Positions 1 through 56,247 of a stretch of DNA of 64,000 nt are shown here, one piece after another. The position numbers and the translations under genes are program-made. The notes under the pieces were generated by a model. That model was not told where the DNA came from, did no database searches, and was given only the letters and a program-made list of their open reading frames with translations. The stretch is from Mayamaea pseudoterrestris. Lineage: Eukaryota. Position 1 is the stretch's first letter. Each line of letters opens with the position of its first letter. The stretch is from contig BROI01000013.1 in NCBI GenBank assembly GCA_027923505.1, positions 1 through 64,000 on the forward strand, in the 5' to 3' direction.

Positions 1-193
1 ACCCAAACCGAAGCGGCAGCGGTGACGTCACGAAGACGGTCACATTTAAGTAAGCGCGGTAAGCGGCAACCGAAGGAGTGGATCGAGGACGATCACTTCT
101 TGGAGAAAATAAGTAAAGTGGTTTTATTGACTCTGTTCTGCTTAATCATTAGTGTCGCTTCAAGGGCGCGCAAGATATATTCTAGATCCAACA
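1..193 (+). repeat. 5' LTR of copia element 1 (partial)
   Basis: Identical to 5014-5206; ends CAACA at 193. Confidence 0.95.
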
Positions 194-220
194 TTTTCTC
201 CAAGAAGCGAGTGAAAAGAC

Positions 221-3200
221 ATGTCTTCGACGAGCAATACTCCGACGACAGGAGCGGCGTCGAGCGGTGGAGGTGCACCTCCCGCTCCGCCAGCAAGCGA
301 AGGAAACCGACGCAACCGTCATTATCGTCGTGGGAATCGTGCTGGGAATCGTTCCGGGAATCAAGGCAATGGTAACAGACTCAACGGACCGAGTCGTGCG
401 CCGAGTGGAAATTCCAAGGAAGCGAGCCGACGCTCGCTGGATTCATCTACGACTATAACGGTTCGCGCGATCCCGATGGATTCATCCGTACGACGAACGA
501 GATCATCACTTTCGTCGGGCGCTCCTACAAGAAATATACCAAGGAGCTGCTCAAGGGCATGCGCAACGTGGAACTGGAGATTCCTGACGAGCCTGCACGT
601 CCAACGAAGGATGCCGACACGACGGACTCGGACTGGTCCATAATGCTCGAGGAATACAAGGCCGACAAGAAAGAGCATGTCGAGCGCGTGCGTGTATACT
701 CCGACTTCCTCGCTGGTCTCTACGCCGTGTTGCATGGACAATGCACGGAGCGTATGAAGGATCGTGTCAAGTCGCACGCCAAGTTCCGAGACGCCGAGGA
801 GGACACGGACGGAATTAAGTTGCTGGCGATTATCAAGGAGATCTCGCATACGTACGAAGGGCGCTGCAAACTTGTGGATCAAGTCGTGGACATTCAAGCT
901 GAGTTGTTCGGACGTACTCAAGGAGCGCGCGAAAGCCTGCAGAAATATTACGAAAGCATGGTCACGCTGGCAGACGTGGCGAAGGCGGTTGGCGTCACGA
1001 TGCACAACGAGATTGTGGCGTTGAACATTGCCAAGGATGACAATCGTAACAAGGCGAACAAGGAGGATATCAAGGCCGCCGAAGAGCTCGAGCTGGGCAT
1101 GCTTTTCGTGCGTGGCGCAACGGGCGAATACGCTGGGTATTGCAAGCACTTGCGCAACTGCTACCTCGACGGGCACGACAACTTCCCGTTGACGATCCAC
1201 GATGCATACAACATCATGCAGCGTCGTGAGCATGCGGATGGAGAAGCCACGTTGCCAACGAACGAGGGCGTGGCGTTTCACACGACTGGTACAGCGCGTG
1301 ACCCTCCCAGATGCTGGACCTGTCAACAGGTTGGTCATGTGCAGCGAGACTGTCCTACGAGAACGGAGTCTACGGAGAGTGCGCCGGCTGCAGAGGCTAG
1401 TGGGGCGCAGCACTTCACGCTGGGTAGCGAGGAAGAAAGCGATGACGACGATGAGGTCGGATACATGTTCGCGCAGCCGCCGAAGGTGAACATCTCGAAG
1501 AAGGCTGTGCTCTTGGACAATCAGTCGACAGTGGATCTGTTCTGCAACGCCAAGATGCTGACGAACATTCGCCCGGTGCCAACGTGGATGGTGACTAAGC
1601 GCAACGCTGGTACAGTAAGGACGAACATGATGGGCGACCTGGAGGGCTATGGTCCGGTGTGGTGGTATCCGCAGGGACTGGCGAACATTTTGAGTTTGGC
1701 GCAAGTCCGCAAGAAGTTTACCGTGGAGTATCTCATGCACGGCGTGGATCGTCCAATGTTCGTTGTGGAGAAGCCGGATGGTAAGCAGCGAGAGTTTGTC
1801 GAGACTGACTCTGGGCTGTATGTTTGCGAGAGCTTTTCGAAGGGCAAGCGCAGCGATGTCAAGGATGGAGTGGCGATGTTGACTACGGTAGACGATAACC
1901 GTACTAACTACACCAATGATGACTATTTACGCGCTGTTAGAGCTAGGGAACTGCAAATCAAAATTGGACGGCCAAGCCTCAAGGATTACCTGCGCATCGT
2001 TACTAGCAATCAGTTGCCGAACTGTCCTGTGACGAAGGCCGACATCCTGGCTGCTGAGCACATCTTTGGACCAGATGTTGGCTCGTTAAAAGGAAAGACG
2101 ACGCGTCGCGCGTCGCATCTGGTGAAGCCTGCGATTGTTGAGCAGCTTCCACCGGCTATCATGAGTCGCTATCGAGACGTTACTCTTTGTGCTGACATCA
2201 TGTATATCAACAAAGTCCCTATGTTGGTGACGTTCTCCCGCAGCATTCGTTTTGCTACGGTTGAGGTGATTCAAAACCGTACGCTTCCGGTTATGTTGAA
2301 GGCAATCGAGTCTGTGTTGAAGATTTACGCACGCGGTGGGTTCCGTGTCGTCGCGGCTCTGATGGATGGGGAGTTCGCTCCAATGCTTGGCGCGTTGGCT
2401 GATCTCGGAGTGGCGCTCAATGCGACATCTGAGGATGAACACGTTGGCGAAATTGAACGTTTTATCCGTGTCGTGAAAGAACGGGTGCGCGCGACATACA
2501 ACACGTTGCCATTTAAGCACGTGCCGGCACGCTTGGTTATCGAAATGACGAAGTCTGCCGTGTTTTGCTGAATGCGTTTCCGAACGAGCGTGGCATTTCG
2601 AAGGATCTCAGTCCACGCACTATTGTGACTGGTCAGACAGTTGACTTTAATCGGCATTGCAAGTATGAATTTGGTCAGTATGTGCAAACGCATGAGTCGC
2701 ACAGCAATGACATGCAGGCGCGCACGATCGGTGCGCTGGCTCTGCGCCCGACTGGTAATGTGCAGGGTGGGTTTTATTTCCTCAGTTTGTCTTCGGGCAA
2801 AGTTCTGAATCGTGGGCACGCTACGCCTTTGCCCATGCCTGATGATGTCATTGAGCGCGTGCATCGTCTCGCTCGTCAACAGAAGGCCAATCCGGGCATC
2901 GTGTTCATGGACCGCCACCGTGTTGCGGAGGCTGCTGAGCCAGTCATGTGGCACGAAGATGACGCCGAGGATGATGATGACTCTGATTATGATGACGACG
3001 CTTCTCGCGGTGACGACGACTCTGCCGGCGGAAGCGAAGGAGTGAATGCGACCGATGACGACGACGACGACGACGATGGTGCTGACGGCGCAATCGAAGG
3101 AGTGCCGAACGACGAGGATGGTGAGGCCATTGACGGCGAACTTGACGACGCGCCAGCCGTGGATGATGGCGAAATTGAAGGAGTGCCCGATGAAGGCGAA

Positions 3201-5066
3201 ATTGAAGGAGTGCCAGCTGCTGCAGACGAAGAGGATTTCGATGCGCGCTATGGCCCACGCACTGGTCGGTATGGCCTGCGTGCGCGCAAACCTCGCTCGT
3301 TCGCTCATTTGTTCACGCTCGACGCTGCAGAGGAAGTGTCGGAGCCACTCGTCACGGCACAGATGAATATGCGACAAGGTTTAAAGGCTTTTGGCGATGC
3401 TGGAGTGGAGGCAGTGCGCAAGGAAATGCAGCAGCTACACGACAGGCACGTCATGAAGGCAGTCCCCAATGCACTCTGACTCCGCAGCAGCGCAAGGACG
3501 CTCTGGCGTATTTGATGTTTCTCAAGCGCAAGAGATGCGGGACTGTGAAGGGACGCGGATGCGCGGATGGACGCAAGCAACGAGCATACACTGCAAAGGA
3601 AGACGCAGCATCTCCAACGATAGCGACAGAGGCCATCTTTCTGACAGCTATCATTGACGCTATGGAAGGGCGCGAGGTTGCTGTGGTTGATGTACCGGGT
3701 GCTTTCATGCAAGCGGAAATGGATGAGTTGGTGCACGTTCGTTTCACTGGGAAGATGGTGGAGCTACTGTTGGAAATTGATCGCGAGATGTACGAGCCTT
3801 GCGTCACAATGGAGAATGGCGAGAAAGTCATGTATGTTGAATTACTCATGGCGCTTTATGGTACGCTTCGAGCAGCGCGACTATTCTGGGAGAAGTTGTC
3901 CGCAAAATTGCTTGAGTGGGGGCTTCGAGAAGAACCCGTACGATCCGTGTGTGTGCAACAAGATTGTCAATGGGAAGCAAATCACCGTGGGATGGCACGT
4001 GGACGATTTGAAGATTTCGCACGTCGACGTGAGCGTAGTGGATGAGTTCATCGCGCAGATGGATGAGGAGTTTGGCAAGGAGACTCCAATGAATAAGTCA
4101 CGCGGAAAAGTGCACGACTACCTCGGCATGGTATTGGACTATACTAAGCCTGGAGAAGTAGCAATCAACATGGTTGACTATGTGAAGAACATCCTGCATC
4201 ATGCGCCAGACGACATGGATGGAACGGCAGCTACTCCGGCAGCCAGTCACTTGTTTCAGATATCGGAAAATCCTGTCATGTTGAGCGAAGCGAAGAAGCA
4301 GATTTTTGTGACGATTGTGATGCAGTGTCTGTATCTGAGTCAGCGAGCGCGACCGGATATTCGCACAGCGATTTCTTTCTTGAGCACGAGGCTGCAGCAG
4401 CCTGACGAAGACGACTATAAGAAGGCTGCAAGAGTGATTAAATATTTACGCGGAAGCGTGGACATGGTGTTGACGCTGAAGGCGGACCAGTCCGGGATAG
4501 TCCAGTGGTGGGTGGATGCGTCGTACGCGGTGCACCCAGACATGAAGGGTCACACTGGTGGAACAATGACACTTGGCCAAGGATCAGTGTACAGTACGTC
4601 GGCTAAACAGAAGTTGGTAACAAGAAGCTCGACGGAGAGCGAAGTTGTGGGAGTTCATGATGTGCTACCGCAGTTGCTGTGGACAGGATATTTTCTGAAG
4701 GCGCAAGGTTTCGGGGTCAAAGACACGAAATTGTATCAAGACAATATGAGTTCAATGCTGTTGGAAAAGAATGGCAGAAGCTCAAGTACAAAGCGCACGC
4801 GACACATGAATGTTCGGTACTTCTTTGTGAAAGATCGCGTGGCAGCTGGTGAAGTCAACATTGAGCATTGTCCGACCGGAGACATGGTCGCGGATTTCTT
4901 CACGAAACCATTGCAGGGAGCCCAGTTTGGCAAGCTCCGCAACCTGGTTATGAATCTGGCCTCGAGCAGTAAGTACTACTCGGCCCAAAGGAGTGTGTTG
5001 AGCATGGATGAGAACCCAAACCGAAGCGGCAGCGGTGACGTCACGAAGACGGTCACATTTAAGTAA
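221..5066 (+). CDS. copia gag-pol polyprotein broken by four 1-nt frameshifts (about 410, 2567, 3468, 3920)
   Basis: Zinc knuckle CWTCQQVGHVQRDC; protease-like LLDNQSTVDLF; integrase core (LCADIM...MDGEF...EHVGEIER); RT (VDVPGAF, LYG, WHVDD); RNase H (VDASYAVH, QDN, ADFFTKPL). Pieces are ORFs 221-643, 559-2571, 2565-3479, 3512-4045 and 3654-5066. Confidence 0.93.
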
Positions 5067-5206
5067 GCGCGGTAAGCGGCAACCGAAGGAGTGGATCGAG
5101 GACGATCACTTCTTGGAGAAAATAAGTAAAGTGGTTTTATTGACTCTGTTCTGCTTAATCATTAGTGTCGCTTCAAGGGCGCGCAAGATATATTCTAGAT
5201 CCAACA
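4996..5206 (+). repeat. 3' LTR of copia element 1 (211 bp)
   Basis: TGTTG...CAACA termini, preceded by a PPT. The pol stop codon (5066) lies inside this LTR. Confidence 0.95.
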
Positions 5207-5493
5207 GTCGTTGCTTGCAGCTTATTCAACAATTTGCCGAGTCTCGCACACACTGATTATACAGAATAAAGAGGGTCCTTTGCGCCGATGCTTTGTATAT
5301 TGCTGCATGGCCTTTATTATTGAAGCGTCAACCTCGCAAGGGAGACGCAGCCGTACGCCGTACAAGACTGGCTTGCTCTCCTCGCTCCATCAAGGCTGAT
5401 TCCTTCCTCGTTTGCGGAACCTTTGACTATATGTTCAATGACAGTAATTGCTACATTGATGAGACTGCAATTCATGTATAGTAGTGGAGGCAT

Positions 5494-10456: not shown

Positions 10457-10584
10457 CTTCACTAATAGAAGACAAGGTGAAGGGACGAATGGATCAAGCT
10501 TGTCGGCGCAAAGAAACTGCACAATGGAGAAAAATAATTGGTGGCAGCGAAAACGATCGTGAGTACCACTACGATTTAATGACA

Positions 10585-10990
10585 AATACGTCATAAGGCA
10601 ATAAAGCAAAACGAGTGCCAGTGAAAACTGCGTCACGAGGCTATAGTACGAAACGAGTGCCAGTGAAAACGGAGTCATGAGGCTATAATAGAAAACGAGT
10701 GCCAGTGAAAACGGCGTCATGAGGCAATAGTAGGATTCGAGTGCCAGTGAAAACTACGTCTCTTGAAAAGAACATTGAATGAGTATCAGTGCAAAAGTAC
10801 AAAACGAATGCCAGTGAAAACTGCGTCACGAGGCAATAATTGAAAACAGGTGCCAGTGTAAACTGTGTCATGTGGCAATAATAAAAAAACAAGTGCCAGT
10901 GAAAACTGAGTCATAAGGCAATAACACAAAACGAGTGCCAGTGAAAACTGCGTCACGAGGCAATAACACAAAAGCAGTGGCAATGAAACC
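10585..10990 (+). repeat. 42-bp minisatellite array 1 (about 9 units, one interruption near 10760-10800)
   Basis: Repeated core ACGAGTGCCAGTGAAAACTGCGTCA..AGGCAATA with about 42-nt period; reverse complement of arrays 2 and 3. Confidence 0.9.
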
Positions 10991-11081
10991 GGCAAGCGGG
11001 TGAATCTTCTCCACAAACGCGCGACTTCATTTCGGCTTTACGGCTACCAGTCTTGTACAAGCTACTCACATAAACATTAGC

Positions 11082-14819: not shown

Positions 14820-14975
14820 TGAATTCTTTGTCGTACTTGTATGTAAATCTGACAACTAGAACACAACTACTGTGGTCTATCCTGAGCCTGCAATATCACC
14901 AAGATCAGAGTTTCGGTGACGAAGATTATGGTGGACGATGCAAGGAAAACGCACTTGGGAGTCGCGTATCGCGGC

Positions 14976-15211
14976 TTTATGACGTCCGTTTTCATTGGCA
15001 CTCGTTTCATACTATTGCCTTATGACGTAGTTTTCACTGGCACTCGTTTCGTATTATTGCCTTTTGACGTAGTTTTCACTGGCACCCGTTTCGTATTATT
15101 GCCTTATGACGTAGTTTTCACTGGCAGTCGTTTCATACTATTGCCTTATGACGTCATTGACACTGGCACTCGTTTCGTACTATTGCCTTGTGACGTAGTT
15201 TCACTGGTGCC
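14976..15211 (-). repeat. 42-bp minisatellite array 2 (about 5.5 units)
   Basis: Unit GGCACTCGTTTCGTATTATTGCCTTATGACGTAGTTTTCACT repeated; reads as TGTRFVLLPYDVVF repeats in the ORF track. Confidence 0.92.
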
Positions 15212-15326
15212 TTGACCAAAGCAAAAATGAAAGTTCTGCAACCGTTCGCGCCACGCACACTGCTCGCAACAAGAAGAAGTCGCCACTGTGCTGATCGCTG
15301 TGGAATTTGTGCTCTTACTCCCAACA

Positions 15327-16451: not shown

Positions 16452-18625
<2,174 letters not shown>

Positions 18626-41226: not shown

Positions 41227-41523
41227 GGCAAGCGATAATATGCTTACAGTAGTCTGCAATGATGGCTACCGAAAAAGACGAAACAAGTTCCTTGCCGCCA
41301 CACAAACACTCGAGCAAGATCCTTGGCTATCAGAGCGTGACAACAACGCTGCACCAGAAATCGGGAGCCGGCAAGCGAAACGAGGGAGCGAAACTCCGCC
41401 CGTTCTCACACACTATACCAAAACCTGATCCTTGTCAGTCGTTCCAGTCATTTGTTGGGCATGTCATACTCGTATCACATACGAAGTCAATGGTGGTGAA
41501 CGAGCTGACAAGTCGGGAAAGAT

Positions 41524-41930
41524 GGTTTTCACTGGCAATCGTTTTGTGTTATTGCCTAATGACGTAATTGACATTGGCACTCGTTTCATACTATTGCCTA
41601 ATGACGTAATTGACACTGGCACTCGTTTCGTACTATTGCCTTATGACGTAATTGACACTGGCACTCGTTTCGTATTATTGCCTTCTGACGTAGTTTTCAC
41701 TGGCACTCGTTTCTTTCTATTGCTTATTGACGAAGTTTTCAAAAAAAGGCTTAATCAGTTATGACGTATTTCTCACTGGCACTCGTTTCGTACTATTGCC
41801 TCGTGACGTTGTTTTCACTGGCACTCGTCTCGTATTATTGCCTCGTGACGTAGTTTTCACTGGCACTCGTTTCGTACTATTGCCTAATGACACAGTTTTC
41901 ACTGGCATTCGTTTCGTACTATTGCCTCAA
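41524..41930 (-). repeat. 42-bp minisatellite array 3 (about 10 units, interruption near 41740-41760)
   Basis: Same unit and orientation as 14976-15211. Confidence 0.92.
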
Positions 41931-44053
41931 GATATACTGGTACTTGTACTTTTATTCAAAGGGTGATGTGGATGCCGCGCTACAGACGCCTCGCGGCATG
42001 TTTCTCCACGTCGACTTTTGTATCGTTGACTTGAAAGAGTCAACAATTAAAATACCACGAACACTTTCCCGATCAATAAGCTAGATGTGCATCATCTCCA
42101 GTTTAGATAAAGGAAAGCATGCGCCCTACGACTTGTGATATTTAGCAGGCGGCACGACGGCCCACGGCACGATGCACGACCTCAGAAAGCAGAGCGACCT
42201 GGCCCAATTGGCATCCACGAACCATCGTTAGTCGACGATGGTTTCTTCAGATCGATTGGTAAAGCACGTTATCAGCGCACATCTTGCGAGGCATTGTATA
42301 AATGTAGCGCTCCAGTGGGACGACGATAGATATTTCTCTCTCTCTTCGAAGCTGGGTCGATTGTCAATCGAGCATGAAATGCGCAATGATGAGTCGCTAC
42401 TTTGATTATATTGCAATTCGGAGGGTGCTAGGCAAGTAATAGTTTTCCAAGTGCCAACTGAAGACGTTGCAGCGACAATGCTGAAAAGGCATGCAACAGA
42501 CTCAGCGAAGAAGGATTGGATGGCTATGACGACTTAAACACCTGCGTACCAGTATCAGCGCCAGGCGTTCAAGTCCACGGTAGAAGAAACACTTTAGGGA
42601 CGATGCGTCCAAAGTTTGGCTACGATTTGTTTTCAGGTCGTCCGACAGTTCCAGTTGCGTATGTTGAAAGGTTGATGCGATTGATAGTCAGGATTAGCGT
42701 TGAGTACGTCACGGTCTTGGATGCTGGAGCGGATGCTGGTCATTAGCTCGGAGAGCCCATACTGTAAATACAGGCAAGAAATAATCGACGTAGGCAACCG
42801 TCCAAGTATTATCATGGCATTTGCTTGCAAAAACGAATGCGAGCGACGAACTCAACGCTCGGATATTTTTGCCTGCTTTCATTTAATCCATGTACATACT
42901 CCTACATACGTCGTAGATGGTTTGAAATCCATTAGTTATCAGTAGTTGCAATCATTGCCTGTACAGATCTACCCAAGCGCCGCCTTCTAAAGCGTAAGCA
43001 CCACACCACCTGCATGTGCAGCACGCGTTGCCGTCATCCGGGGAGCTGTTGCGAGTTTGAAAGCAAGCTGCAATCAGGAAAATCAGCTACTGCACCTTTT
43101 ATGTTGCCAACGATCGAAAAACAACACATGCGACGTTGGACCGTTAGACAACATTCCTCTATTCGCTGATCTCGGCTGGCGGAGGCTGCAACTAAGGTTG
43201 ACGAAACAACAATTCTAAGTTAGACCAAACGACAGATGCGAGTTAAAGCCAAAGGTTTCGTTAATGACGAGAAATACTGTAGCACCGGACCATAAAATAG
43301 TTCAGAAAAGGGTCGACGAGGAAGCATGTCGTGACAGCCAATTACTGTCCGTGAGCAAAGACCATACTCCTATATAGCGGTAGAAAATCAAGTAAAGCAT
43401 ACCATTGTAAAACTATGAATTCGAAGCATTGATGGTTGGCGACAACTGTGACCAAAAAATGTCAGTTATGTCAATGCCACTAAATGGTACTAATGGTAAG
43501 AATTTGTAGAAGCTACACATAACAAGCAAAGCTTTGCCTCGACGTTAAAGCCACAGCCAACAAAATGTAAAGAAAGCAGACGCGCGATCGCAACACCGGA
43601 GACGTCAACCTTCGGTTCGAAATTGTCTCGCAAAGCGGCCGGACGCCATATAGGACTCCTGAACGTCGAGATATTGCTTGCGAGTCGAAAAGACTAGCTC
43701 TGGCGGTCTATCGTTCATTCCTGCGCTAACTAATGATAAGGGTCGTCGAAACATCGACCATGCACGGCAAGAAGTGTCAAGCATAAAGCCCCTGCCAGCG
43801 CAGCTACTCTGCGTTGCGCCACTCCATCGCCCGAGCTTCTCCTTGCTGCCAATTGCTTTGTTCATTCATTGTAAATTGTAAGACGTAAACCTGTCTACCA
43901 GCAGCAACCATGCTAATCCTCGATCCTCGTCTTATTATTATCACCGACCAAACTTGCTCACAGCAAACCGACTGCAGAATAATACCGTAGGCAAGGCATG
44001 CACATGGCACATCGCATTTCCATTGCTCATTGTGATGGTCGTCGATCACAGTC

Positions 44054-44279
44054 TGAAGTACCTATCGTAGGATGATATGTAAATGGAAATTATGGTGGTA
44101 TTTTAAAGACTGCAATTGAAGATTGCCTCCATGGCGAGCCATCGCTCTTTTACTGGCGAGGATCGCAGATGTCGCAACAGGATCGCCCATCTTCGCTAAT
44201 ACCCGACGGGCGTGTCCGTTGACTGTCCGGCTCGCCGTTGAGGCTGGGCCGGTGCATGTGAATCGTGTCAGATAGCACA
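44054..44279 (-). repeat. gypsy 3' LTR
   Basis: Identical to 55786-56011. Confidence 0.95.
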
Positions 44280-44424
44280 CTCTCCCACACTAAGAGCGAC
44301 CATGAGGGTAGCTGGGGTAAAATGTCTTCCTTCTTGTTTGTAAAGTGGCAGCGGCCTTCCTGTCGCACAGGGTGCCGTAATTTAGCTCGATCTTGATGAA
44401 TCGAACAAGGGAGCTGCGCAAACC

Positions 44425-44853
44425 TTAAGCGTCTTGCCGATACGGCTTGATACGCCGAATATTAACTCGGTCAGTCACCATAGGCGAGAGGCGAATGGTA
44501 ACCGTTCCATTAACGTGGACTTGTTCAATTGAATAAGGACCGATCCATCGTTCTTCGAGCTTGTTAGGGTCGTATACCTTCTTGAGGATCTGCTCGTCAA
44601 CTTTAAAGTCATGAGTCAGTCTCGAACGGTTCGCTTGGAGCAAACGTTCATTGACAATCGCTTCTCGTTTAACAGAGATAGCTAGAATGTCGGCAACAAG
44701 CGGTATATCCAGAAACATGTCGCGTTGAAAGACGACGGCGCCGGGAGAAAGGTTATCAAGAGCTCCACTTGATACAACTCGTGTTGCATGCATTGCTGTC
44801 GCGAGGCATTGATCGATTATATCGTCAGCTTCCATCAAATCCTCGGGCGGATG
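44425..44853 (-). pseudogene. gypsy integrase C-terminal part, cut off by the nested copia
   Basis: HPPED...SPGAVVFQRDM...KLEERWIGPY....VHVNGTVTI...RVNIRRIKPY. It joins in frame to 51437-52256 when the copia is removed. Confidence 0.9.
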
Positions 44854-45315
44854 TTGCAGGATGCGAACGAAAACAGCGAAAATCGGGCAAGTCACACCGA
44901 ATGTCCGATAGGGTGACACAGCGGCACTCGCGGCTCACCACAGCCTCACGATCGCGTGATGCGTGGCAGCGACGGCTTCGAAGCGATTCAACGAGTATAT
45001 TGCTGAAACTAGTGCGATGTAGAGTAGAAACAAGCAGACTTACTAAGCTTGAAGAGTTAAGAAAGCGATTTATTCGTCTCTCGTATTGTAGCAACTGCAA
45101 GCTTGGATTGGCCATCCAAGGACAGCTACAAGCGAAAGGTGCAACGATTTGATTTACAAGTTACAAGATTAACACTGTCTTGAGACTCATTGCCTCGGCA
45201 TAGAGACTTTATCGACGAAGAGTACTATTGATTTACGAAGTAACGTGGACGCACGTTGGTTCTTGGCCCGGAAAGTTCCGCAGGTGATAGCAAGAACATT
45301 GTCACGACGACAACG

Positions 45316-48300
45316 ATGGCGGAAACTCGCGCGCAGAAAGACGCGGCGTTTGCGCATGTTTACGAAGAGAACGTAGGCGTTTTCCAGGATCCTCAGTTCA
45401 AGGAGTTATTCGACGAACTCGGAGTAGAATCGCTTACGCAATTGATCGAGATGGAGTACGACGATTTCGCGACGAAGTGGAACGTCACGACGACGACAAC
45501 GACGACGACTGACGATGGCGACAATGTCACGCAGGAAACGAGCGAACACTCGCTAACGAAGATGAAACAACGCACGATCACGAACGCGATCGAATGGTAT
45601 TTGGCGCAAGAGTCGCCGGACATCAAGACATGGTCGCAACTGACCACCGAAACGCTGGCGACGTTCGTCACAGCACGAGCGAAGGAACGAGTCCAAGCGC
45701 GCAACATTGCGAGCGTGGGCAGCGGAAGCGGAGCGAAACCTCCAGCGAAGGAAAGCGAAACGGAATCCAAGAAGGACGAATCCAAGGACTCCACGCTAAC
45801 GAACGAAGGCGACGAGTCGAAACCCGACTCGGCCGACAAGGTGCCACCGACGAGCGTGGACGTGGACACGAAGCAGTCACCGACATCCGTATTGGACCTC
45901 GGCGACGACGAAGACGACGAGAAGTATTCAGACCAATTTACGAAGTCTATCAAGTTCTCGGCGAAGGATTGTAAAGAAATGAAGCTGGATTCCTCGTGGA
46001 AACAGTGGATTTCCGAGTTGAAAGTCATCGCTACATTGCACGACTTCCACGAAGTCTTTGACGACGATTATGACCCGAAGGAAAAGGGACCGAAGGAACA
46101 GAAGGCGTATGCAAAGAAGAATGTGTTTGTATACAGAATCTTTCTCACGCACTGTCGAACTCCGTCTGCATCACTCGCAGTACAGCAGTTCAAGAAGACG
46201 ATGGATGGACGCGAAGTCTACCAACGATTGCGAACGCGATACGAAGAGGGCGCTACTGCTCACATCGAGAAGGAACGCGCGCGAACGGAACTGCAGGGAA
46301 TGCGGCTGACCGAGAAGTGGTCAAGGCCGACGATCGAATTTCTCGCACTGTTCTACAAGAAAGTCATCTGGCTGCTCGAAATGGACGCAGAAGCTCTGAC
46401 AGGTTTACAACGATACGACATGCTACGCGACGCTTTCTCTGAGCACACTGGATTCAGCGCATCACTAGCAGGTTTTGACGGAATGATTGCCATCAAGAAA
46501 CACATGGGGCAACACGACTCGGAAGACAATTTCGCGCAGTTGTACGCGCACTTAGAAGAGTGCTGCATCAAGTATGACAAGAAACATCCATCGACGACGA
46601 AGACTAAGCGCACAATCAATCAAGCGCAGTCTAGTGGAACGAAAGGAGGCGGCGGCGGCAATGGCGGCGCGACTCCAAGCGGCTTATCGGCGGAACGATT
46701 TGCAGCGATCATGAAGAAACCTCACGCGAGCGTGAAGGATGAAGTCTGGTTGGAGATGAAGTTCGATCAGCGAAAGCAGTTGAAGGACAAGCGTGCGACG
46801 GCGCCCAAGACACCCGAACGGATGGCGACCGCGCAACCAACGAGGCACGGCTACGACGCAGACGCAAGTCAACGCGGCGCATCAAGAGCGTCACGCGACG
46901 GAATCTGTAGCGAACGAGCACGCAAGCGTTCCTGGCACGATTAATATTCAGCCAGGCAATAGTGGAATGTCAGTCCAAACGGCTGCACGATCGGTTCTGC
47001 AAGCGAACAATGCGAGTACTACAACTCAGCAAGTGACAGGATCGTTGACGACTGATAACACCGGACGAGGTACATTCAGCTTCAACATGCATCGTCGTAT
47101 GCGCGTCAATCGCGCACACTACGAGCGGATCAACGAAGGCGCGCTCATCGACAGCGGCGCGAACGGAGGCTTATGCGGAGGAGACATGCTCGTCGTTTCG
47201 GAAACGAACGCCGAGGTGGATGTGACTGGTATTGACGATCATATTGTCCCAGCTCTCAAGATTGGCACTGCAGCTGGACTGGCAAAGACCCTTAGTGGCG
47301 AAACCATTCTGCTTTTGTGTCACCAGTATGCTTTAAAGCGAGACGGACCAACGATTCATTGCCCGAATCAATTGCGCGCAATGGGACATCGCGTCGACGA
47401 TATTCCGACCATGTTTGGCGGAACGCAACGAATTACGACGAACATTGGAGGCTACGTTTTGCCATTGGCAATTCGCGATGGCCTGGTGTACTTGGACGTG
47501 ACGAAACCCACGTTCGATGATTTGGATAAGTATCCGACTGTCATCATGACGTCGGACGTGCCGTGGGACCCGACTGTTTACGATGTCGAGCACGCGCACG
47601 ACGATTTCGACGAACGAGATCACGATTATGGATCTTTCGACGAACGATTCGATGATGACGGTATCACGCACCGCAATCGTCAGACGCCGACACGCACTGG
47701 CGATGAACTTGACGTACTGATCAATCGGTGCGTGCGACACGCTCAGTTTTCACGCGTTAATTTGCGGAAGCTAAGAAGCAAGGAACCGGACTATAATGCT
47801 CTTCGGCCGTACCTCGGATGGGTCCCGACTGAGCGAGTTCAACAGACTTTACGTCACACGGAAGCATGGTATCATCTCAGCGAACATCCACGATTACCAT
47901 TTCGACACCTCACGAAATCACGATTTCCGGCCGCGAACGTTCAGCGGTTGCGCGAACTATTCGCCACGGACACGATACACTCTGACACGCCAGCTTTGGA
48001 TGATGGAATTCTAGGGCATGGGGGAGCTACTAAGATGCAGCTCTTTGTTGGACGAGAAAGTTTTTACACGCGCGGCTACCCGATGAAGTCGGAGAGCGAA
48101 ATGTCAAACGCGTTAGAGGATTTTATCCGCGAAGTGGGCGCTCCTAACGGACTGCTCAGCGACAATGCCAAGTCGGAGACTGGCAAGGCTGTGAGGGATC
48201 TCTGTCGGATGTACAATATTCCTCAAGTGACCACAGAACCGGGTCATCCAGAACAAAATCCATGCGAACGTCACACGTCGCACATTAAGCCAATGATGGA

Positions 48301-51106
48301 GAACCTCCAACGAGATTCGGGTTCGCCAGGCCATTGCTGGGTTTTGCTGATTAAATTCGTAATCATGCTTCTGAACGTCCTCGCGACAAAATCGCTGGGA
48401 TGGCGCACTCCAACGGAAGTTGCGTTCGGAAATTTGCCGGATATTTCGCCTTTGTTACATTTCAAGTGGTGGGAACCGGTCACGTTTGAGGCGCAGGGGA
48501 GTTTTCCCTCGGCGGTACGATCTGGCAACGGCCGATTCGTGGGCATCGCAGAGAATAGCGGTCCGCACATGACTTTTCTCGTTCTGACGGACGATACGCT
48601 TCAGGCGATTCCGCGCTCCAACGTGGTCTCGCGCAGCTACTTGTTACCACGAGAGTTGCCTTCCTTCCCTGAGTCTGGAGGGGAGATTTCTGAAGAAGCT
48701 ACACGCGTAAGCGAACGAAATTTTGAAACTCCAGATCTCGCGACAGGACGCTACCATAGCACGAATGCGACAGAAAGTAGTCACGACAACTACGAAGGAA
48801 ACGACGACAAAACGATTCCGATGGCGAACCACGCCAACGTACCAGCGAAGTTCTTCAGAAGGGCTGAGCAAGAATCAGGGAATAAATGCCCTCTGTTCTC
48901 TCCAAGCGAACTCATCGGACGCACGTTCGTAAGGGAACACGAAAACGGTCAGAAAATGCGAGCGACTGTATGCGAATATATCGAAGTACGCGATAACGAG
49001 CTACTCGAAACGACGAAAGGTTTCTTGATCCAGATGGGAGAAGAGCCAGCGAAAGACTTAATAAGTTACAACGAACTGTCAGATTTAATCGAACGACAGA
49101 TGGACGAAGATATACGAAACGATCCGGCGACTCAGTGGGTATTCACGAAAGTAATCGGACACGAGCTTAATTTGAAACCGAATGATCCGACATACAAGGG
49201 AAGTTCAAGTAACGTTCTCGTCGAATGGACCGACGGAACGACGACGTGGGAGCCTCTCGCGATCATGAAGAAGGACGATCCGATAACGATCGCAGAGTAT
49301 GGACTCAAGCATGGCTTACTCGATAAACCAGGATGGAAGCAGCTGGAACATTACACTCGGAAGCGAAAGAAGTTTCGACAGATGGTGACAGCAGCGAAAC
49401 GAAAATCGAAAGCAAACGGCGTACGCTACAAATTTGGCGTAAGATTGCCGCGCAACTATAAGGATGCGAAAGCTCTCGACGAGATCAACGGCAACACGCT
49501 GTGGACGGATGCGATTCGAACGGAACTAAATCAGATAAATGATTACGACACGTTCGCAGATCAAGGAGTCGGTAAGGTTATGCCGGCGCCGTGGAAACGA
49601 ATAAACGTGCACATGATATTCGATGTCAAGCACGATTTGCGACGGAAAGCACGACTCGTCGCAGGAGGACATATGACAGAGCCGCCGAAGGATTCAGTTT
49701 ACTCGGGCGTTGTGTCATTGCGAAGTCTACGAATGGTAGCGATGTTAGCGGAACTCAACGGTCTGGAACTGTGGGCAGCTGACGTCGGCAACGCATACTT
49801 GGAAGCGAAAACGAAAGAGAAGGTTTATATCGTGGCAGGTCCGGAGTTCGGGGAGCTCGAGGGTCACACGCTCACGATCGTGAAGGCACTATACGGTCTT
49901 CGCACGTCAGGCGCACGCTGGCACGAGCACTTTGCAGACACGCTCCGCGACATTGGCTTCACGCCGTGTATCGCAGAACCGGACGTGTGGATGCGCGATA
50001 AGGGCACGCACTACGAATACGTTTGTGTATATGTCGACGATTTAGCGATAGCGATGAAGAATCCGAAGGAACTAACGGATCTTTTAATTGAGAACTACAA
50101 CTACAAGTTGAAGGGCGTCGGTCCATTGGCATATCATTTGGGCGCAGACGTTTGGCGGGACGACGACGGCGTACTCTGCTTCGGAGCGAAGAAGTACGTC
50201 ACAAGACTATTAGCGAACTACAAAGAAATGTTCGGCGAGGAACCGCGACCGCGACAAAGTCCACTACGCGACGGCGATCATCCGGAACTCGACGAAACGA
50301 AAGAACTTGACGACGACGGAATTGCGAAGTATCAATCGATAATTGGTGCGTTGCAATGGGCAGTAAGTTTATGTCGATTCGACATTCACTGCGCTGTCAT
50401 GACTATGGGGAGATTCCGAGCTGCGCCACGAGCGGGGCACTTGGAACGGTTGAAGCATATTTGCGGATACTTACGACGATACCAGGATGGAGCGATTCGA
50501 TTCAACGTTTCGATTCCAACGGACGAGCGATACGCGACAGTTGACAAGATGGATTGGGACTACAGTGTGTACGGCAAGATCTGCGAAGAGCTTCCGTGGA
50601 ACATGCCCACGCCGCGCGGCAAGGCGGTGCGAATGTCAACGTTCGAAGATGCGAACCTGTACCACGATTACACGACGGGACGGGCAGCGATGGGCATGCT
50701 ACACATGTTGAATGGAACAGTCGTTGATTGGTTTTCGAAACGCCAAGCGACGGTCGAGACGGCGACGTACGGCTCGGAGTTTGTAGCAGCGAGAGTGAGC
50801 ACGGAGCAGATCATGGATCTCCGCTTCACGCTACGCATGTTGGGAGTTCCGCTCGACGGACCTTCATGGATGTTTGGAGACAACAAGTCGGTAACGCAAA
50901 GCAGCAACCTACCGCACTCTAGTCTGACGAAGCGACACAATGCATTGGCATTTCACCGTGTACGCGAAGCGATTGCGGCGGGAATTATTAATTTCAACCA
51001 CATCATGGGAACGACAAACCCGGCGGATGTACTTACCAAGTTTCTTCCACGGGCTACGGCAAGCAAGCACTTAAAGAACCTGCTCTTCAAGGAATCTAAC
51101 TATTAG
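45316..51106 (+). CDS. copia gag-pol with one +1 frame change near 46814
   Basis: gag ORF 45316-46944; pol ORF to 51106 with LIDSGANG (PR), integrase core (ATDT...LSDNAKSE...PEQNPCE), chromo-like VLVEWTDGTTTWEP, ADVGNAYL/YVDD (RT) and FEDA...GDN...NPADVLTK (RH). Confidence 0.93.
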
Positions 51107-51123
51107 GTATGACTTGAGGGGAG

Positions 51124-51436
51124 TTGCAGGATGCGAACGAAAACAGCGAAAATCGGGCAAGTCACACCGAATGTCCGATAGGGTGACACAGCGGCACTCG
51201 CGGCTCACCACAGCCTCACGATCGCGTGATGCGTGGCAGCGACGGCTTCGAAGCGATTCAACGAGTATATTGCTGAAACTAGTGCGATGTAGAGTAGAAA
51301 CAAGCAGACTTACTAAGCTTGAAGAGTTAAGAAAGCGATTTATTCGTCTCTCGTATTGTAGCAACTGCAAGCTTGGATTGGCCATCCAAGGACAGCTACA
51401 AGCGAAAGGTGCAACGATTTGATTTACAAGTTACAA
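51124..51436 (+). repeat. 3' LTR of the nested copia
   Basis: Identical to 44854-45166. Confidence 0.95.
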
Positions 51437-52256
51437 GATGAGCGTGTACAAGTGTACGAAGCACGTTGCCAATAACGAGGTGACAGCGCTCGCAAATGCT
51501 GTTAGCAGTGGGCGTCTTGGCCGAAGCGGCATGCCATTCAATCCCATTGTGTTCAAGGATGGTTCCAAATGCTCCTTTAAACTCATTGCCTTGGTCGGCA
51601 ACGAGTCGCATTGGTCGAGGATAGCGAGAGAGCCAGTTGTCTTCAAAGAGACGACCGATATGATACGCCGACTTGTCCTGATAGCGAACAATTTCGACAA
51701 GGTTAGTAACTGGGTCAATCATCGTTAACGCTCTGAAATAACAGTCAATGCCGTTCACTGATACTTTCCATGGGCCGATGAGGTCAACGTGGACTTCATA
51801 CCAAGGAGCGACGCGCACGTCTCTCGCTGGCAGCTCGCCATATTGACGGCTGCCTCCTTTGTTCCGTTGGCAGGTATCGCAAGCTCCAACAAGATGCTCA
51901 ACGCGCTGCTTGAGTTTAGGATGGTAAAAGTGTTGCTTGATGCTCGTTGTAAGGCAAGTCATTCCAGCGTGGGCCATTGAGAGGTGGTACCAAAGAATCA
52001 AGCGATCGAGGATCGCACTGGGGATGCAGATTCGCCAGCGTTCGTCTGCTTGGAATACAACAATCTGAACGTCTCCAAGTTGTTTGTATTGTATGGTTGT
52101 CGCGTCTTGGTTTTGGACTGCGGCCATTAGCGTTGCATCTTCTTGTTGATACTCGGCAATGGTTGAATACGACAGGGGATATCGCCCTTGTTCGTCGAAC
52201 TCCGGATGGAGGAGCAGGCACTCTGCAAGCTCTGGTTCGTCCCGTAGGAGAAAACT
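51437..52256 (-). pseudogene. gypsy integrase N-terminal HHCC and core
   Basis: YHLSMAHAG...CDTCQ; VHVDLIGPW; ADQGNEF; ANSICER. Confidence 0.92.
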
Positions 52257-52257
52257 T

Positions 52258-52877
52258 CATTAAGTTGCTCTTCAATCTCAACATTGGTAGTGGTGGTTAC
52301 ATTCCAAAACAAGAACGCTTCTTGGATGTCTCGTCCGAAACGTTTCCGTGCAGAGAAGCTGCAAGCTTCGATGTCGCAACCATGATAGTGAATACCTCGC
52401 TTTCCGCAAGTCCTTTCTTACACAACAACCGCTCTCAATGCGAGTCGAGCCTTATACGATCCTGTTCTACGCGCTCGTGTCAAGTATTCGGATTGACGAC
52501 GCCGCAAAGGAATCTGCTCTTTTCTCTCTCAATTTCTCGGATTCTTTCACTCCTCTCTCTTTCGCACAGCTCTCTCAGGTCAAGACAAGCTAGCAAGACT
52601 GTTAATCTGACACGTTAATATCAGACGAACCTTTTATTCCAGCGACTACAATGGACTAGGAGGCGATCAACCTCTTCGTCCAGCGTAAAGCAAACAAACA
52701 AACTCAATTGCTAGAATAGTGCATGTTACTCGCTACTCTCGTGCGCTTCCTTCTCATTCTCACTGGGTTCACGGTCGAGGTTCACGCCTCGATCGTCAGG
52801 CATTCACTCATGTATGTGAGGATTCGGTCACAAGTGTGACTCAACCCCTGCACAGGATTAAATGCATACAAAACACA
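52258..52877 (-). mobile_element. Foreign segment of about 620 bp: probable LTR (52608-52877), PBS and leader of another LTR element, replacing part of the gypsy RNase H
   Basis: The pol frame breaks after SRKLNSAQAT. The minus strand reads TG...AATAAA...GTGTCA, then GATTAACAGTCTTGC. Confidence 0.55.
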
Positions 52878-54635
52878 GGTAGCTTGGGCGCTGTTGAGCT
52901 TGCGCGAAAAGTAAGCGACCGGCACGCCATCTTGAAGGATGACGGCGCCGAGTTGATAATCAGACGCATCCGTTTTAATGACGAATGGCTTGTTATGATC
53001 AGGATAACGAAGGAGAACATCGCTTGCTGCAACTGCTTTCATTTCTTCGAACGCCTTTTGTTGAGGCGCGCCCCATTGAAAGGACTTTTTGCCGACGAGA
53101 TTCGTCAAAGGAGCAAGCATGTGCGACCGTCGCGGCCACATGGTTCGATAGTATGTAACAAGACCAAGGAATGAGCGCAACTGCTTGAGATTAGTAGGAG
53201 GCTTCATATCCACAATTGCTTGGACTTTCTTGGGCCAGGGTTTGAGTCCTGTCGGCGTGAGCCAGTACCCAAGCCAGTCGGTTTCCTTGACGCCCCATTC
53301 GCACTTGCTTGGATTGATTGTGAAGCCGCTATCCTCGAGACGCTTTAAAACTGCCTCTAAGAGAGTTAAATGCTCCTTCCAAGTGTCGCTAAAGCAACCG
53401 ACGTCGTCAAGGTACTTTTCAACGTCGCGCAATCCTTGTAAAACTTTCTCCATCACCTCTTGAGCAATATCGGGGGCTTGATTGACGCCCATTGGCAAGC
53501 GCAAGTAACGGAATAAACCGAACGGCGTTGCAATCGTACAGAGCTCGCTGCTTTCCTTGTCCAACTGGAAGGTATAATACTGCATTGAAATATCAAGCTT
53601 TGTGAAGAACTTGTACCCGCTGCGCCTCGCCAGTAGCTCATGGATACGCGGCATTGGGAACGTGCGCCTTTTAATCACTTTATTCAACGCCCGAAAGTCA
53701 GAAACAAAGCGTACAGTCTTGTCCTTCTTTGGTATAATAAAGGTGGGCGCCGCCCATTCGCTGCGGCCGCAAGGCTCAAGTACACCGAGTTCGACGAGTC
53801 GATCAAGCTCTTCCTTGAAGGTTTGCTCATGCACTCGAGGCACTGGATAATGTCTTTTATGGACTGGTTTAGCTTGTGGATCAATGTCAATGTGGACTAG
53901 CTCGTGTGGGTATTTGCCAAGCTTGCCTGAAAAGAGAGCGGGAAAGCGTCGTAAGAGACGTTTTAAATCGGTACGTTGCTCCTCATTTAAATGAGTTGAT
54001 TGATCTGCAACCTCATCTGTTGACACTTTGTTATACTTAGCTGATAAAATCTCCTCGCTTGTATGCAGGTCTGGTTCAGTATCCGAGAAGAGGACGAAGC
54101 GCTCAATCAAAGAGTCTCTAATCTGCTTTGGCCGATTGCTCAAATCCTCCATCGTTACCATTGGAGTCGATTGATTACCCCAATTGATTTGTTTGTCCCC
54201 GAAATCAATGGTCAATCCGAGCGCCGTTAAGACGTCTCGCCCCAGCAGCATGTCGTATCTTATATCCTGCTGGAAGACTCGTACTGGGAAGGCGCCGATC
54301 CTTTTTGAAGTGCTAAACTCGGGAAGGAACGACTCGGCAAAATCAATCTTGGTAGAGCTCTCCAATTTGCCAACTGCAGTCTGTGATACTAAACGTGGTG
54401 CTTTGCACTGAGGCAATCCATGTGCCGCTCTTTGGCTAATCCAACTTGTCGAGGCTCCTGAATCGCAAAGGGCGGTAAGCGTGCGTTTACAGCGACTGCC
54501 ATTAGCTTTACCAACGACAATAAGTACAACAGGAATGTAATCCGTAACTTTGTCGCTAGTAGCTTGTTGATTAACTTCATCCGCTACAAGAGCGTCTTCA
54601 GTCGCACTGGCTGCCGCTGAGACCGCCGCCGTATC
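52878..54635 (-). CDS. gypsy pol (PR-RT-partial RNase H), in frame with gag after a single TGA
   Basis: ALCDSGAS (PR), DMLLGRD, SDFRALN, KLDISMQYY, LPMG, YLDD and KTDASDYQLGAVI. Confidence 0.92.
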
Positions 54636-55736
54636 TCATTCTTCAAAGACCGCTCCAATTGCTTGATCCCAATCAACCTCCGACTCGCTCTCTTGCTCTT
54701 GCGCTGGCGCTGGTTCCTCTGTTGTAACATCCACTATCATGTGCTGGTCTTCATCAGCTCCTTGAGCAGCTCCGCCTCCATTGTTGCCGCCTCCATTGTT
54801 GTTTTTCTTTTTCAATTTCGACTTGTCGAGTTTGAAACCCGGCTTGTAGCGCGGGCCCTTGGGGTTGCCAAAACACTGCTCCCAAGTGTGGCCGCCATGG
54901 TATTTGCACACGTTGGCATCGTTGTTTGCTTTAAGCTTCTTGCGTGCGTTCCCGTTGCCTCCATGGTCGTTGTTTTGGCCGCCGCCGTTGCCACCGTTGC
55001 GACGCGAGCGTTTGCCGCTCCGACGGCTGCCTCCTTCGTTCGTGTCGACTGGAGTCCTGTTGCTTGCCTTTAAGTTGATCATGTTATCCAACCAACGAGC
55101 AAATTGAATCAGAGAAAGGTCTGCAAGGCGACTCGTTAAAGATTGCTCCTCAAACTTGCTTTGCAGCCAAGTAGGGACCATTGCGAGCAGGAGATCCTTG
55201 ATGTCCTCGTCCGTATACTGGACCGCCGTTGGGTAGACCGCCTCGTCTTCTTGCGGCATATAAGCCATCAACTTGAACATATTGCGCAACAAACTAATCG
55301 ATTGGGTAACCGTATAGCCGTCAGGCAACTTGAGGTTCTTGAGGTACTCTTTTTGTCGACGCAAATCGTCGTCGACGACCATGAGCTCAGAGAGGAAAGC
55401 TTTGAGCGATTGGTTCCACGCTGCGATTGTGTCGTCTGGTAGAACTGATTGATCCCAGGTATCACGAGGCGCTCCAAGGAGACAAAGGCGAAAGGATTCC
55501 TTGCGGACCCTCATGCGATGGGCTGCCTGTCCATCAAAGGCGAGCTGCTCCATTGCACCAATCACCTCCCCGATGACACGAAGGACAGTCACGACGTCTT
55601 CATCACTAGCAATCTGTATCTTGCGCTTGTGCTTGGATCCATCTTGCTTGGTGAACGTGAGATCTTGTTTCGGTAGCGACTCAAACTTGACGCGAGGCAC
55701 CAAAGGGATCTTGACGTCGACTCCTCTAATCAACAT
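54636..55736 (-). CDS. gypsy gag
   Basis: 366-aa ORF directly after the 5' LTR; CKYHGGHTWEQC zinc-binding-like motif; basic and Gly/Asn-rich segments. Confidence 0.85.
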   Translation of the reverse strand: MLIRGVDVKIPLVPRVKFESLPKQDLTFTKQDGSKHKRKIQIASDEDVVTVLRVIGEVIGAMEQLAFDGQAAHRMRVRKESFRLCLLGAPRDTWDQSVLPDDTIAAWNQSLKAFLSELMVVDDDLRRQKEYLKNLKLPDGYTVTQSISLLRNMFKLMAYMPQEDEAVYPTAVQYTDEDIKDLLLAMVPTWLQSKFEEQSLTSRLADLSLIQFARWLDNMINLKASNRTPVDTNEGGSRRSGKRSRRNGGNGGGQNNDHGGNGNARKKLKANNDANVCKYHGGHTWEQCFGNPKGPRYKPGFKLDKSKLKKKNNNGGGNNGGGAAQGADEDQHMIVDVTTEEPAPAQEQESESEVDWDQAIGAVFEE

Positions 55737-55785
55737 GTTGTTTGTTTCCGTTTCCGATAGACAGTTGTCTATTTTGAATTCAAAG

Positions 55786-56011
55786 TGAAGTACCTATCGT
55801 AGGATGATATGTAAATGGAAATTATGGTGGTATTTTAAAGACTGCAATTGAAGATTGCCTCCATGGCGAGCCATCGCTCTTTTACTGGCGAGGATCGCAG
55901 ATGTCGCAACAGGATCGCCCATCTTCGCTAATACCCGACGGGCGTGTCCGTTGACTGTCCGGCTCGCCGTTGAGGCTGGGCCGGTGCATGTGAATCGTGT
56001 CAGATAGCACA
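55786..56011 (-). repeat. gypsy 5' LTR
   Basis: Identical to 44054-44279. Confidence 0.95.
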
Positions 56012-56247
56012 CAGTCAATGAAACTTCCACGAAGTCGTCAAAACAAGATTGAAAATTATGTCTACCTGACGTGGCGAAGGTCATTGACATTTCAGAGTCA
56101 TTGCCGTTCAACGAATGAAGATACCATGCTCCTAATTTAGCGAGTCGCGTTCCGACTGCTGCCAAGTCAAGCAATGGTATGTAAGTAAGTACCGTCTGGT
56201 ATGAGAGCAAACAAGTAGCATAGCAACAGCCAGCTGACCTTTGCACC

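Follow-up and report, generated by a model that had tools for sequence, protein, structure and literature searches.

A Ty1/copia-type retrotransposon of Mayamaea pseudoterrestris with a predicted primer binding site complementary to its own LTR, a candidate for self-priming shared with a clade of relatives

Most LTR retrotransposons are tied to a host tRNA for the priming of reverse transcription, and self-priming frees them from this dependence. The 64,000-nucleotide stretch of Mayamaea pseudoterrestris DNA that was analysed here (the window) opens inside an LTR retrotransposon that raises the question of where its primer comes from. An initial annotation, made from the letters of the window, had noted that the 5' LTR is followed by the reverse complement of a segment of that same LTR in place of a tRNA-type binding site, and had proposed that the element primes reverse transcription with its own RNA. 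We assessed this proposal by characterising the element and its leader, by searching for relatives and scoring their leaders for the same pairing, and by comparing the result with the known self-priming systems.

The element and its fold-back repeat

The window begins 18 nt inside the 5' LTR, leaving positions 1-193 (plus strand, ending in CAACA), and these match 5014-5206 at 100%, confirming the identical LTRs of the initial annotation. The complete 3' LTR (4996-5206, plus strand) is 211 nt long, reads TGTTG...CAACA and carries a second copy of the primer arm described below at 5109-5123. Directly 5' of it lies a polypurine-rich tract, AAAGGAGTG (4987-4995, plus strand), whose putative role follows from its position. 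Between the LTRs a gag-pol frame (221-5066, plus strand) runs in five frame pieces from an ATG at 221 to a stop at 5064-5066, 71 nt into the 3' LTR. Gag was recognised by a CCHC zinc knuckle at 1309-1356 (plus strand; Pfam zf-CCHC, E 1.4e-05, residues 251-266 of the ORF at 559-2571). A copia-type reverse transcriptase (RVT_2, 3539-4205, plus strand) was matched by Pfam PF07727 in two pieces (E 2e-07 and 2.7e-04), each of which is under the curated cut-off because the domain is split by a frame change near 3918; homologues of this region with up to 76% identity have PF07727.

The integrase was detected by structure. Sequence searches of 1480-2568 against Pfam and PDB gave no match, either with the element alone or with 31 relatives, and none of 32 clade members matched rve or any protease family of Pfam at E <= 0.1 in the protease-integrase region. 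An AlphaFold2 model of 1480-2568 (mean pLDDT 82.6) was searched with Foldseek and its top matches were retroviral integrases (best E 5.5e-07). The integrase core of Rous-associated virus aligned to the model with a TM of 0.77 (normalised to the target) and an rmsd of 2.2 over 137 columns, and the predicted catalytic-core fold occupies 2152-2568 (plus strand), running on into the next frame piece. The N-terminal half of the model is beta-rich (residues about 9-117) and is without a family match. In this clade the protease-integrase region escapes both Pfam and PDB sequence searches, yet it is predicted to fold into a clear integrase core. As this fold lies 5' of the reverse transcriptase, the gene order is that of copia. 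The RVT_2 reverse transcriptase, the integrase upstream of it, the TG...CA ends of the LTRs and the CCHC Gag are all features of Ty1/copia (Pseudoviridae), and the element is a Ty1/copia-type LTR retrotransposon.

The state of the coding region was assessed with the contigs of four public sequencing runs, one of which is DNA (X1) and three of which have no recorded library type (X5, X6 and X8); none of them is recorded as RNA. In all four runs the contigs were one base longer or shorter than the window at every frame change, these being after 411, at 2566/2568, after 3463 and at 3918. Every one of these differences keeps a single frame open, and the family is therefore intact in those runs. 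The four single-base indels belong to the copy in the window or to its assembly. Three of the four sites are in or beside short homopolymer runs. The frame changes of the window copy may be assembly errors and not real mutations.

Two of these runs, X6 and X8 (37 and 16 million letters), covered the element at a summed contig depth of about 1,000-60,000 compared to 1.6-160 on the flank at 5221-5400. X8 contained the whole LTR as one contig at a depth of about 3,200, and a 211-nt contig of this run spans exactly 4996-5206. Such depth could result from strong expression, extrachromosomal cDNA, many copies or targeted libraries. One X6 contig matched the flank from 5207 on and was preceded by unrelated sequence, and other contigs had unrelated sequence ahead of 4995/4996. 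Such junctions are what one would expect of an empty site and of insertions of the family elsewhere, and each was seen as a single contig. The family may be moving at present: in the public runs its frame is open and, in two of them, it is 10 to 10,000 times as deep as the flank; its two LTRs are identical, and one contig has the appearance of an empty site.

The complementarity was evaluated with a repeat search of the window. The arms are at 93-110 and 193-210, 18 nt that are 94% complementary (17/18) across a spacer of 82 nt, and they include a perfect core of 15/15 in which 96-110 (CTTCTTGGAGAAAAT) pairs with 193-207, as initially described. Pairing begins at the last LTR base, A193. We refer to 96-110 (plus strand), which would make up the first 14-15 nt of the element RNA, as the self-primer arm and to 193-207 (plus strand) as the predicted primer binding site (PBS); the part that is universally paired in the leaders compared below joins 96-109 to 194-207. 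The initial annotation was also right that a TGG is missing, none being present in the 12 nt 3' of the LTR end. The gag ATG sits 14 nt past the helix.

This repeat is the most extensive of its kind in the window. Across all 64 kb only four perfect inverted repeats of at least 11 nt with a spacer of 20-350 nt were found (15, 12, 11 and 11 nt), and the LTR/PBS repeat was the sole one of at least 13 nt. When the 18-mer was searched across the window with up to 3 mismatches it matched only itself (93-110, plus strand), its copy in the 3' LTR (5106-5123, plus strand) and the PBS (193-210, minus strand, 1 mismatch). The expected number was 0.11, and three matches were reached in 0 of 100 shuffles. 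Contigs from the public runs showed zero differences from the window in the LTR-PBS region. A predicted RNA fold of 95-225 was closed by the arm/PBS helix, with a z-score of only -1.78. A scan of 1-260 for bacterial-type promoters and terminators returned nothing, these models not being applicable to a eukaryote.

Two further elements of the window, a second copia element and a Ty3/gypsy element, served as a control; in both, PBS region and LTR lack any complementary stretch of 8 nt or more. The Ty3/gypsy element is on the minus strand between identical 227-nt LTRs (44054-44280 and 55786-56012) with a target duplication of CAGTC, and its span (44054-56012) has Pfam matches to RVT_1, RT_RNaseH_2 and Integrase_H2C2. 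It is interrupted at about 44853-51441 by the different copia element, which is on the plus strand, matches RVT_2 and, weakly, rve, and has identical LTRs that are about 319 nt long. Elsewhere the window contains arrays of 42-nt tandem repeats with copies that are 62-86% identical (10566-11035, 14946-15285 and 41441-42024), of which the second and third are one repeat family. An open frame on the minus strand (16452-18152) joins an esterase (PF00756) to a zinc-type alcohol dehydrogenase (ADH_N, ADH_zinc_N), and as judged from these domains may encode a fused pair of formaldehyde-detoxification enzymes.

Recurrence and covariation of the helix in relatives

Homology searches with the reverse transcriptase-RNase H protein returned 3826 homologues at E <= 1e-3 (best identity 76%), and Gag had only 2 homologues of near length. 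Because Gag had so few, PR-INT was chosen as the query. It had 527 homologues, among which the only informative name was that of a protein from the diatom Cyclotella cf. meneghiniana at 42% identity. With regard to the host, an atlas search with a ubiquitin hydrolase led no further than Eukaryota of mixed phyla, and a single diatom name emerged from cluster names. Scanning metagenome contigs with a PR-INT alignment (A1) produced at least 516 relatives confirmed by tblastn, and the best 80 of these (L001-L080, 36-55% identity) were kept. A scan of viral contigs with the reverse transcriptase-RNase H protein gave 22 pattern matches, 0 of which were confirmed.

The 80 loci (361,381 nt) contained 33 perfect inverted repeats of at least 13 nt with a spacer of 20-200 nt. 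Twenty-eight of these, from 27 loci, were in the context of an LTR end and were perfect over 14-17 nt, and the other five were elsewhere. Within this context the 3' arm started at or one base after a conserved CAAC|A (CAATA and TAACA in two loci) and the 5' arm was 37-111 nt upstream. For L003, L060 and L067 the LTR end was mapped independently by self-BLAST, and the PBS arm started exactly there. In control windows of 900 nt taken from coding parts of the same loci, a repeat of at least 12 nt was found in only 4 of 167.

How often the repeat occurs could be judged in the 43 loci that have at least 1250 nt upstream of the match, the other 37 having too little. A perfect repeat was present in cis in 26 of them, and in two more (L005 and L037) its LTR arm came from the 3' LTR, where the contig ends; five had a slightly imperfect repeat (L077, L070, L049, L011 and L040) and ten had none. 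Eight of the ten repeat-less contigs begin downstream of the expected arm position, including L007, L030, L053 and L015, which still open with the PBS or the LTR end. L029, the sister of L028, was also repeat-less with too short an upstream sequence. Ample upstream sequence without a helix was found in a single case among the 43 loci, L038, a degenerate copy with stops. Among the 37 loci with short upstream sequence a circularly permuted contig, L010, still has the repeat. L067 has a second perfect inverted repeat of 16 nt (1459-1532, spacer 42 nt) about 360 nt upstream of its 5' LTR and outside the CAAC context, possibly left over from a different element.

Elements with a perfect repeat were 42-100% identical to each other in PR-INT (median 49%, 21 elements). 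They fell on all main branches of a PR-INT tree of 34 sequences, for which 47 of 81 had been dropped for a stop codon or a length below 250 aa.

Covariation between the arms was quantified in two ways. Leaders were first aligned on the CAAC at the LTR end, giving 25 distinct rows with the window included. Positions 2-14 counted from this anchor were paired in 25 of 25 rows, each position showing two to four pair types; position 15 was paired in 24 and position 1, the last LTR base, in 19, while pairing at positions 16, 17 and 18 was seen in only 10, 5 and 6 rows. Pairs were also counted in a MAFFT alignment of 21 leaders (A2). Here 95.2% of 270 helix cells were paired compared to 54.4% in shuffles (0/500), and the covariation score was 0.818 compared to 0.187 in shuffles (0/500). 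Sliding the partner by 1-3 columns as a control left 35-59% paired. The unpaired cells came mainly from rows that MAFFT had misregistered (L006 and L047, which have 16-nt arms, and L013), and L026, with a gapped arm, was counted only among gap cells. Thirteen of the 14 pairs changed on both sides, in 99 cells, demonstrating the compensatory changes between LTR segment and PBS that the initial annotation had suggested looking for in relatives.

RNAalifold recovered the helix unaided together with two inner stems that also covary, at A2 columns 38-41/73-76 and 120-128/147-154; one is right after the primer arm (CTGGTT...AACC) and the other is a U5 hairpin. The pairing was specific to each element. 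Of 702 cross pairs, just 2 gave a PBS with a perfect partner in the leader of another element, both of them between L009 and L058, which are nearly identical, and 27 distinct relatives had 27 different 14-nt sites, each matching its own LTR. At the level of these sequences the arm is not conserved across the clade and its predicted pairing is kept.

Predicted RNA start, proposed priming and alternatives

The position of the arm was compared with the likely start of the RNA. An initiator-like consensus proposed for diatoms is TCAH(+1)W (PMC4686930). The window has a match, TCACT, at 93-97 (plus strand), with a predicted +1 at C96; it is the start of the TCACTTC that the initial annotation had located, which lies at 93-99. 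A conserved (C)TCA also precedes the 5' arm in the relatives, and in 24 of 27 distinct leaders TCAH(+1)W was found with its +1 at the first arm base or one base to either side (offset 0 in 17, +1 in 6 and -1 in 1), compared to a background of 0.0075 per nt. From this agreement we infer that transcription of the window element probably starts at or beside C96. Because the TCA motif abuts the arm and the PBS abuts the LTR, the helix extends precisely between the predicted 5'-terminal base of the RNA and the base that follows the LTR.

Contig ends in the public runs were also considered; all four runs consist of contigs, and no site at which many molecules start or stop emerged from them. Contigs of X5, a run that is not on record as RNA, covered only 106-3636 and 3701-5134, with nothing on 1-105 or past 5134, and a contig of the DNA run X1 crossed the whole LTR. 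The X5 coverage is a weak hint of RNA, being the pattern expected of a transcript that starts at or just before 106 and terminates at the LTR equivalent of 121, since 5134 corresponds to 121 of the 5' LTR. Based on this stop, and with an AATAAG at 108-113, we tentatively assigned 111-121 (plus strand) as the putative rest of R, leaving 122-193 (plus strand), between this end and the LTR end, as the putative U5 and fold-back loop. If the RNA ended at about 121, the stretch of R still available to the first strand transfer would be short, at only about 11 nt. The X5 stop at 5134 is 11 nt past 5123, the end of the arm in the 3' LTR, and the contig of L005 (5245-5256) likewise ends 11 nt past its primer arm. 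The contig of L007 starts exactly one base after the primer-arm position, as judged against the near-identical L009. The ends of the L007 and L005 contigs may be real molecule ends or coincidence.

Self-priming has been shown experimentally for Tf1 of Schizosaccharomyces pombe, which belongs with the Tf1/sushi group to the Ty3/gypsy chromoviruses and uses a primer duplex of 11 bp. To our knowledge Tf1 is the only element for which self-priming has been experimentally demonstrated, and few self-priming groups are known. In Tf1 the PBS comes directly after the 5' LTR and can pair with the 5' terminus of the Tf1 mRNA, and according to PMC10085805 priming needs a leader folded into a three-duplex 'pretzel'. 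Like Tf1, the window element has a PBS directly 3' of its 5' LTR that is complementary to its own predicted first RNA bases and, as in the Tf1/sushi group, a tRNA-type PBS is absent and this feature is kept within a group of related elements. The window element differs from Tf1 in its duplex of 14-15 bp, in the two local hairpins that its loop has in place of the extra pretzel duplexes, and in that its cleavage and priming are predicted ones. The Tf1/sushi elements have the reverse transcriptase before the integrase and an RVT_1-type reverse transcriptase, whereas this element has an integrase fold before an RVT_2 reverse transcriptase; it is not a member of that group because of its copia order and its RVT_2 domain.

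We consider it likely that the element starts reverse transcription in the manner of Tf1 from the 5' end of its own RNA and not from a host tRNA. Transcription would start at or beside C96, straight after the initiator-like TCA. Nucleotides 96-109/110 of the RNA would then fold back over the 82-nt loop, made up of the rest of R and U5, and pair with 194-207, for which the pairing potential is evident in the complementarity itself. The RNase H of the element would cut after about nucleotide 109 to leave the 3' end of the primer beside the last LTR base. The cut after about 109 in the initial annotation fits, because the universally paired part is 14 nt, 194-207 with 96-109. As the 3' end of the arm pairs beside the last LTR base, extension would copy U5 and the rest of R, yielding minus-strand strong-stop DNA with the geometry required of a fold-back primer. 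The PBS of each new copy would be written from the primer, so that arm and PBS could drift together yet stay perfectly complementary, and this rewriting would explain the compensatory changes across the clade. The self-priming reading of the initial annotation is strongly supported by the recurrence of the same helix, with compensatory changes, across a deep clade and by its anchoring at the LTR end and the initiator-like TCA; the start and the cut are still predicted positions.

The conserved helix could instead be a structure of the RNA leader, acting in packaging, dimerisation, control of gag translation or strand transfer, with something else serving as primer. The helix does close a leader that holds two more conserved hairpins. 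The RNAalifold consensus consists of the primer helix and two local hairpins, and the additional duplexes that flank the PBS in the Tf1 pretzel were found neither there nor in the 25-row pair counts; priming itself is something that we infer. Nevertheless, in every case the helix starts with the base that directly follows the LTR, the point from which minus-strand synthesis has to set out, and the element offers no other candidate PBS, with no TGG after the LTR. Between elements there is free variation in the bases adjoining the LTR, and the length of the helix is set by the LTR end and the TCA motif, which fits a primer and not a generic stem. We therefore regard a leader structure with a separate primer as unlikely.

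Much less probable still is a host-derived primer (a tRNA, a tRNA half or a different small RNA) that binds 194-207, with the match to the LTR being secondary. In favour of such a primer, copia lineages are described as using tRNA-Met and half-tRNAs (PMC6317226). Against it, the 14-nt site differs in all 27 of the distinct relatives and pairs with the LTR of the same element in each, so that no single host RNA could account for these sites. The missing TGG argues in the same direction, and the Val-CAC tRNA, the only one in the window, has no more than 5 nt in common with the site. A chance match or an assembly artefact, suggested by an assembly that is imperfect at four single bases relative to the public runs, has a negligible probability and is for practical purposes refuted by the recurrence of the repeat in independent metagenome contigs, given also that 0 of 100 shuffles reached the observed count, that the LTR-PBS region is identical in the public-run contigs and that so few control windows (4 of 167) had a repeat of at least 12 nt.

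Relation to other elements and implications

Self-priming by the element's own RNA, the reading preferred here, was compared with what has been published for other copia elements. The initial annotation had known the mechanism from gypsy lineages only and had suggested that a self-priming copia element could be new. This claim was too strong, because self-priming has already been predicted for a plant Ty1/copia lineage, TAR, which includes Houba and Osr-1 (Neumann et al. 2019, PMC6317226). The criterion given there asks for a stretch of at least 10 bp in the 5' LTR whose complement begins 0-5 bp downstream of the LTR, and the window element falls within it with 15 bp from the last LTR base. 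It shares with TAR the copia superfamily and this operational criterion for self-priming, and it is by this published criterion alone that the two are set side by side. In contrast to the plant TAR elements, its relatives come from environmental metagenomes and the only named one is the diatom protein at 42% identity.

In the fungal copia element GalEa the PBS is replaced by a 'Conserved Hairpin Site', a short local palindrome for which no complement in the LTR was found, as reported by Donnart et al. 2017 (PMC5445492). Both are copia elements without a tRNA-type PBS that have a conserved structure at the PBS position. Relative to this account of GalEa, the partner of the present site is 37-111 nt upstream in the LTR, and its sequence varies with only the pairing kept. 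The CoDi copia-like elements of diatoms (Maumus et al. 2009, PMC2806351) probably belong to the same superfamily and the same broad host group. The main text of that paper contains no mention of 'primer binding', 'tRNA' or 'priming' and uses 'PBS' only for a buffer, and our full-text literature searches found no report of self-priming in diatom-type or CoDi copia elements. Compared to tRNA-primed LTR elements, the window element has no TGG in the 12 nt after its LTR, and no PBS is shared among its relatives (27 sites in 27). Judged by sequence comparison, the clade as a whole is a new addition to a known kind of element, those predicted or shown to self-prime, with unusually strong covariation support.

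Whether this extends to replication is a broader proposition. We put at about even the chance that a whole clade of protist (diatom-type) Ty1/copia elements, environmentally widespread and undescribed, replicates without a host tRNA. If true, the 14-nt primer of each element would be set by its own transcription start (TCA|+1) and its LTR end, and the PBS would be written anew from the primer in each cycle. Within the Pseudoviridae self-priming would in that case be an old strategy common to the lineage, reaching beyond Tf1/sushi and one plant lineage. A deep copia clade that keeps a self-complementary PBS through massive compensatory change provides a natural covariation data set for the mechanism. 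It also suggests an annotation rule, namely TCA, 14 nt, a distance of 37-111 nt, CAACA and the reverse complement of the 14 nt, for elements that PBS finders based on tRNAs would call PBS-less. Transformation systems exist for algae, and the clade is a testable candidate in transformable algae. Together these data bear on whether a hairpin or self-priming is ancestral in LTR elements, an idea that is raised in PMC3601003.
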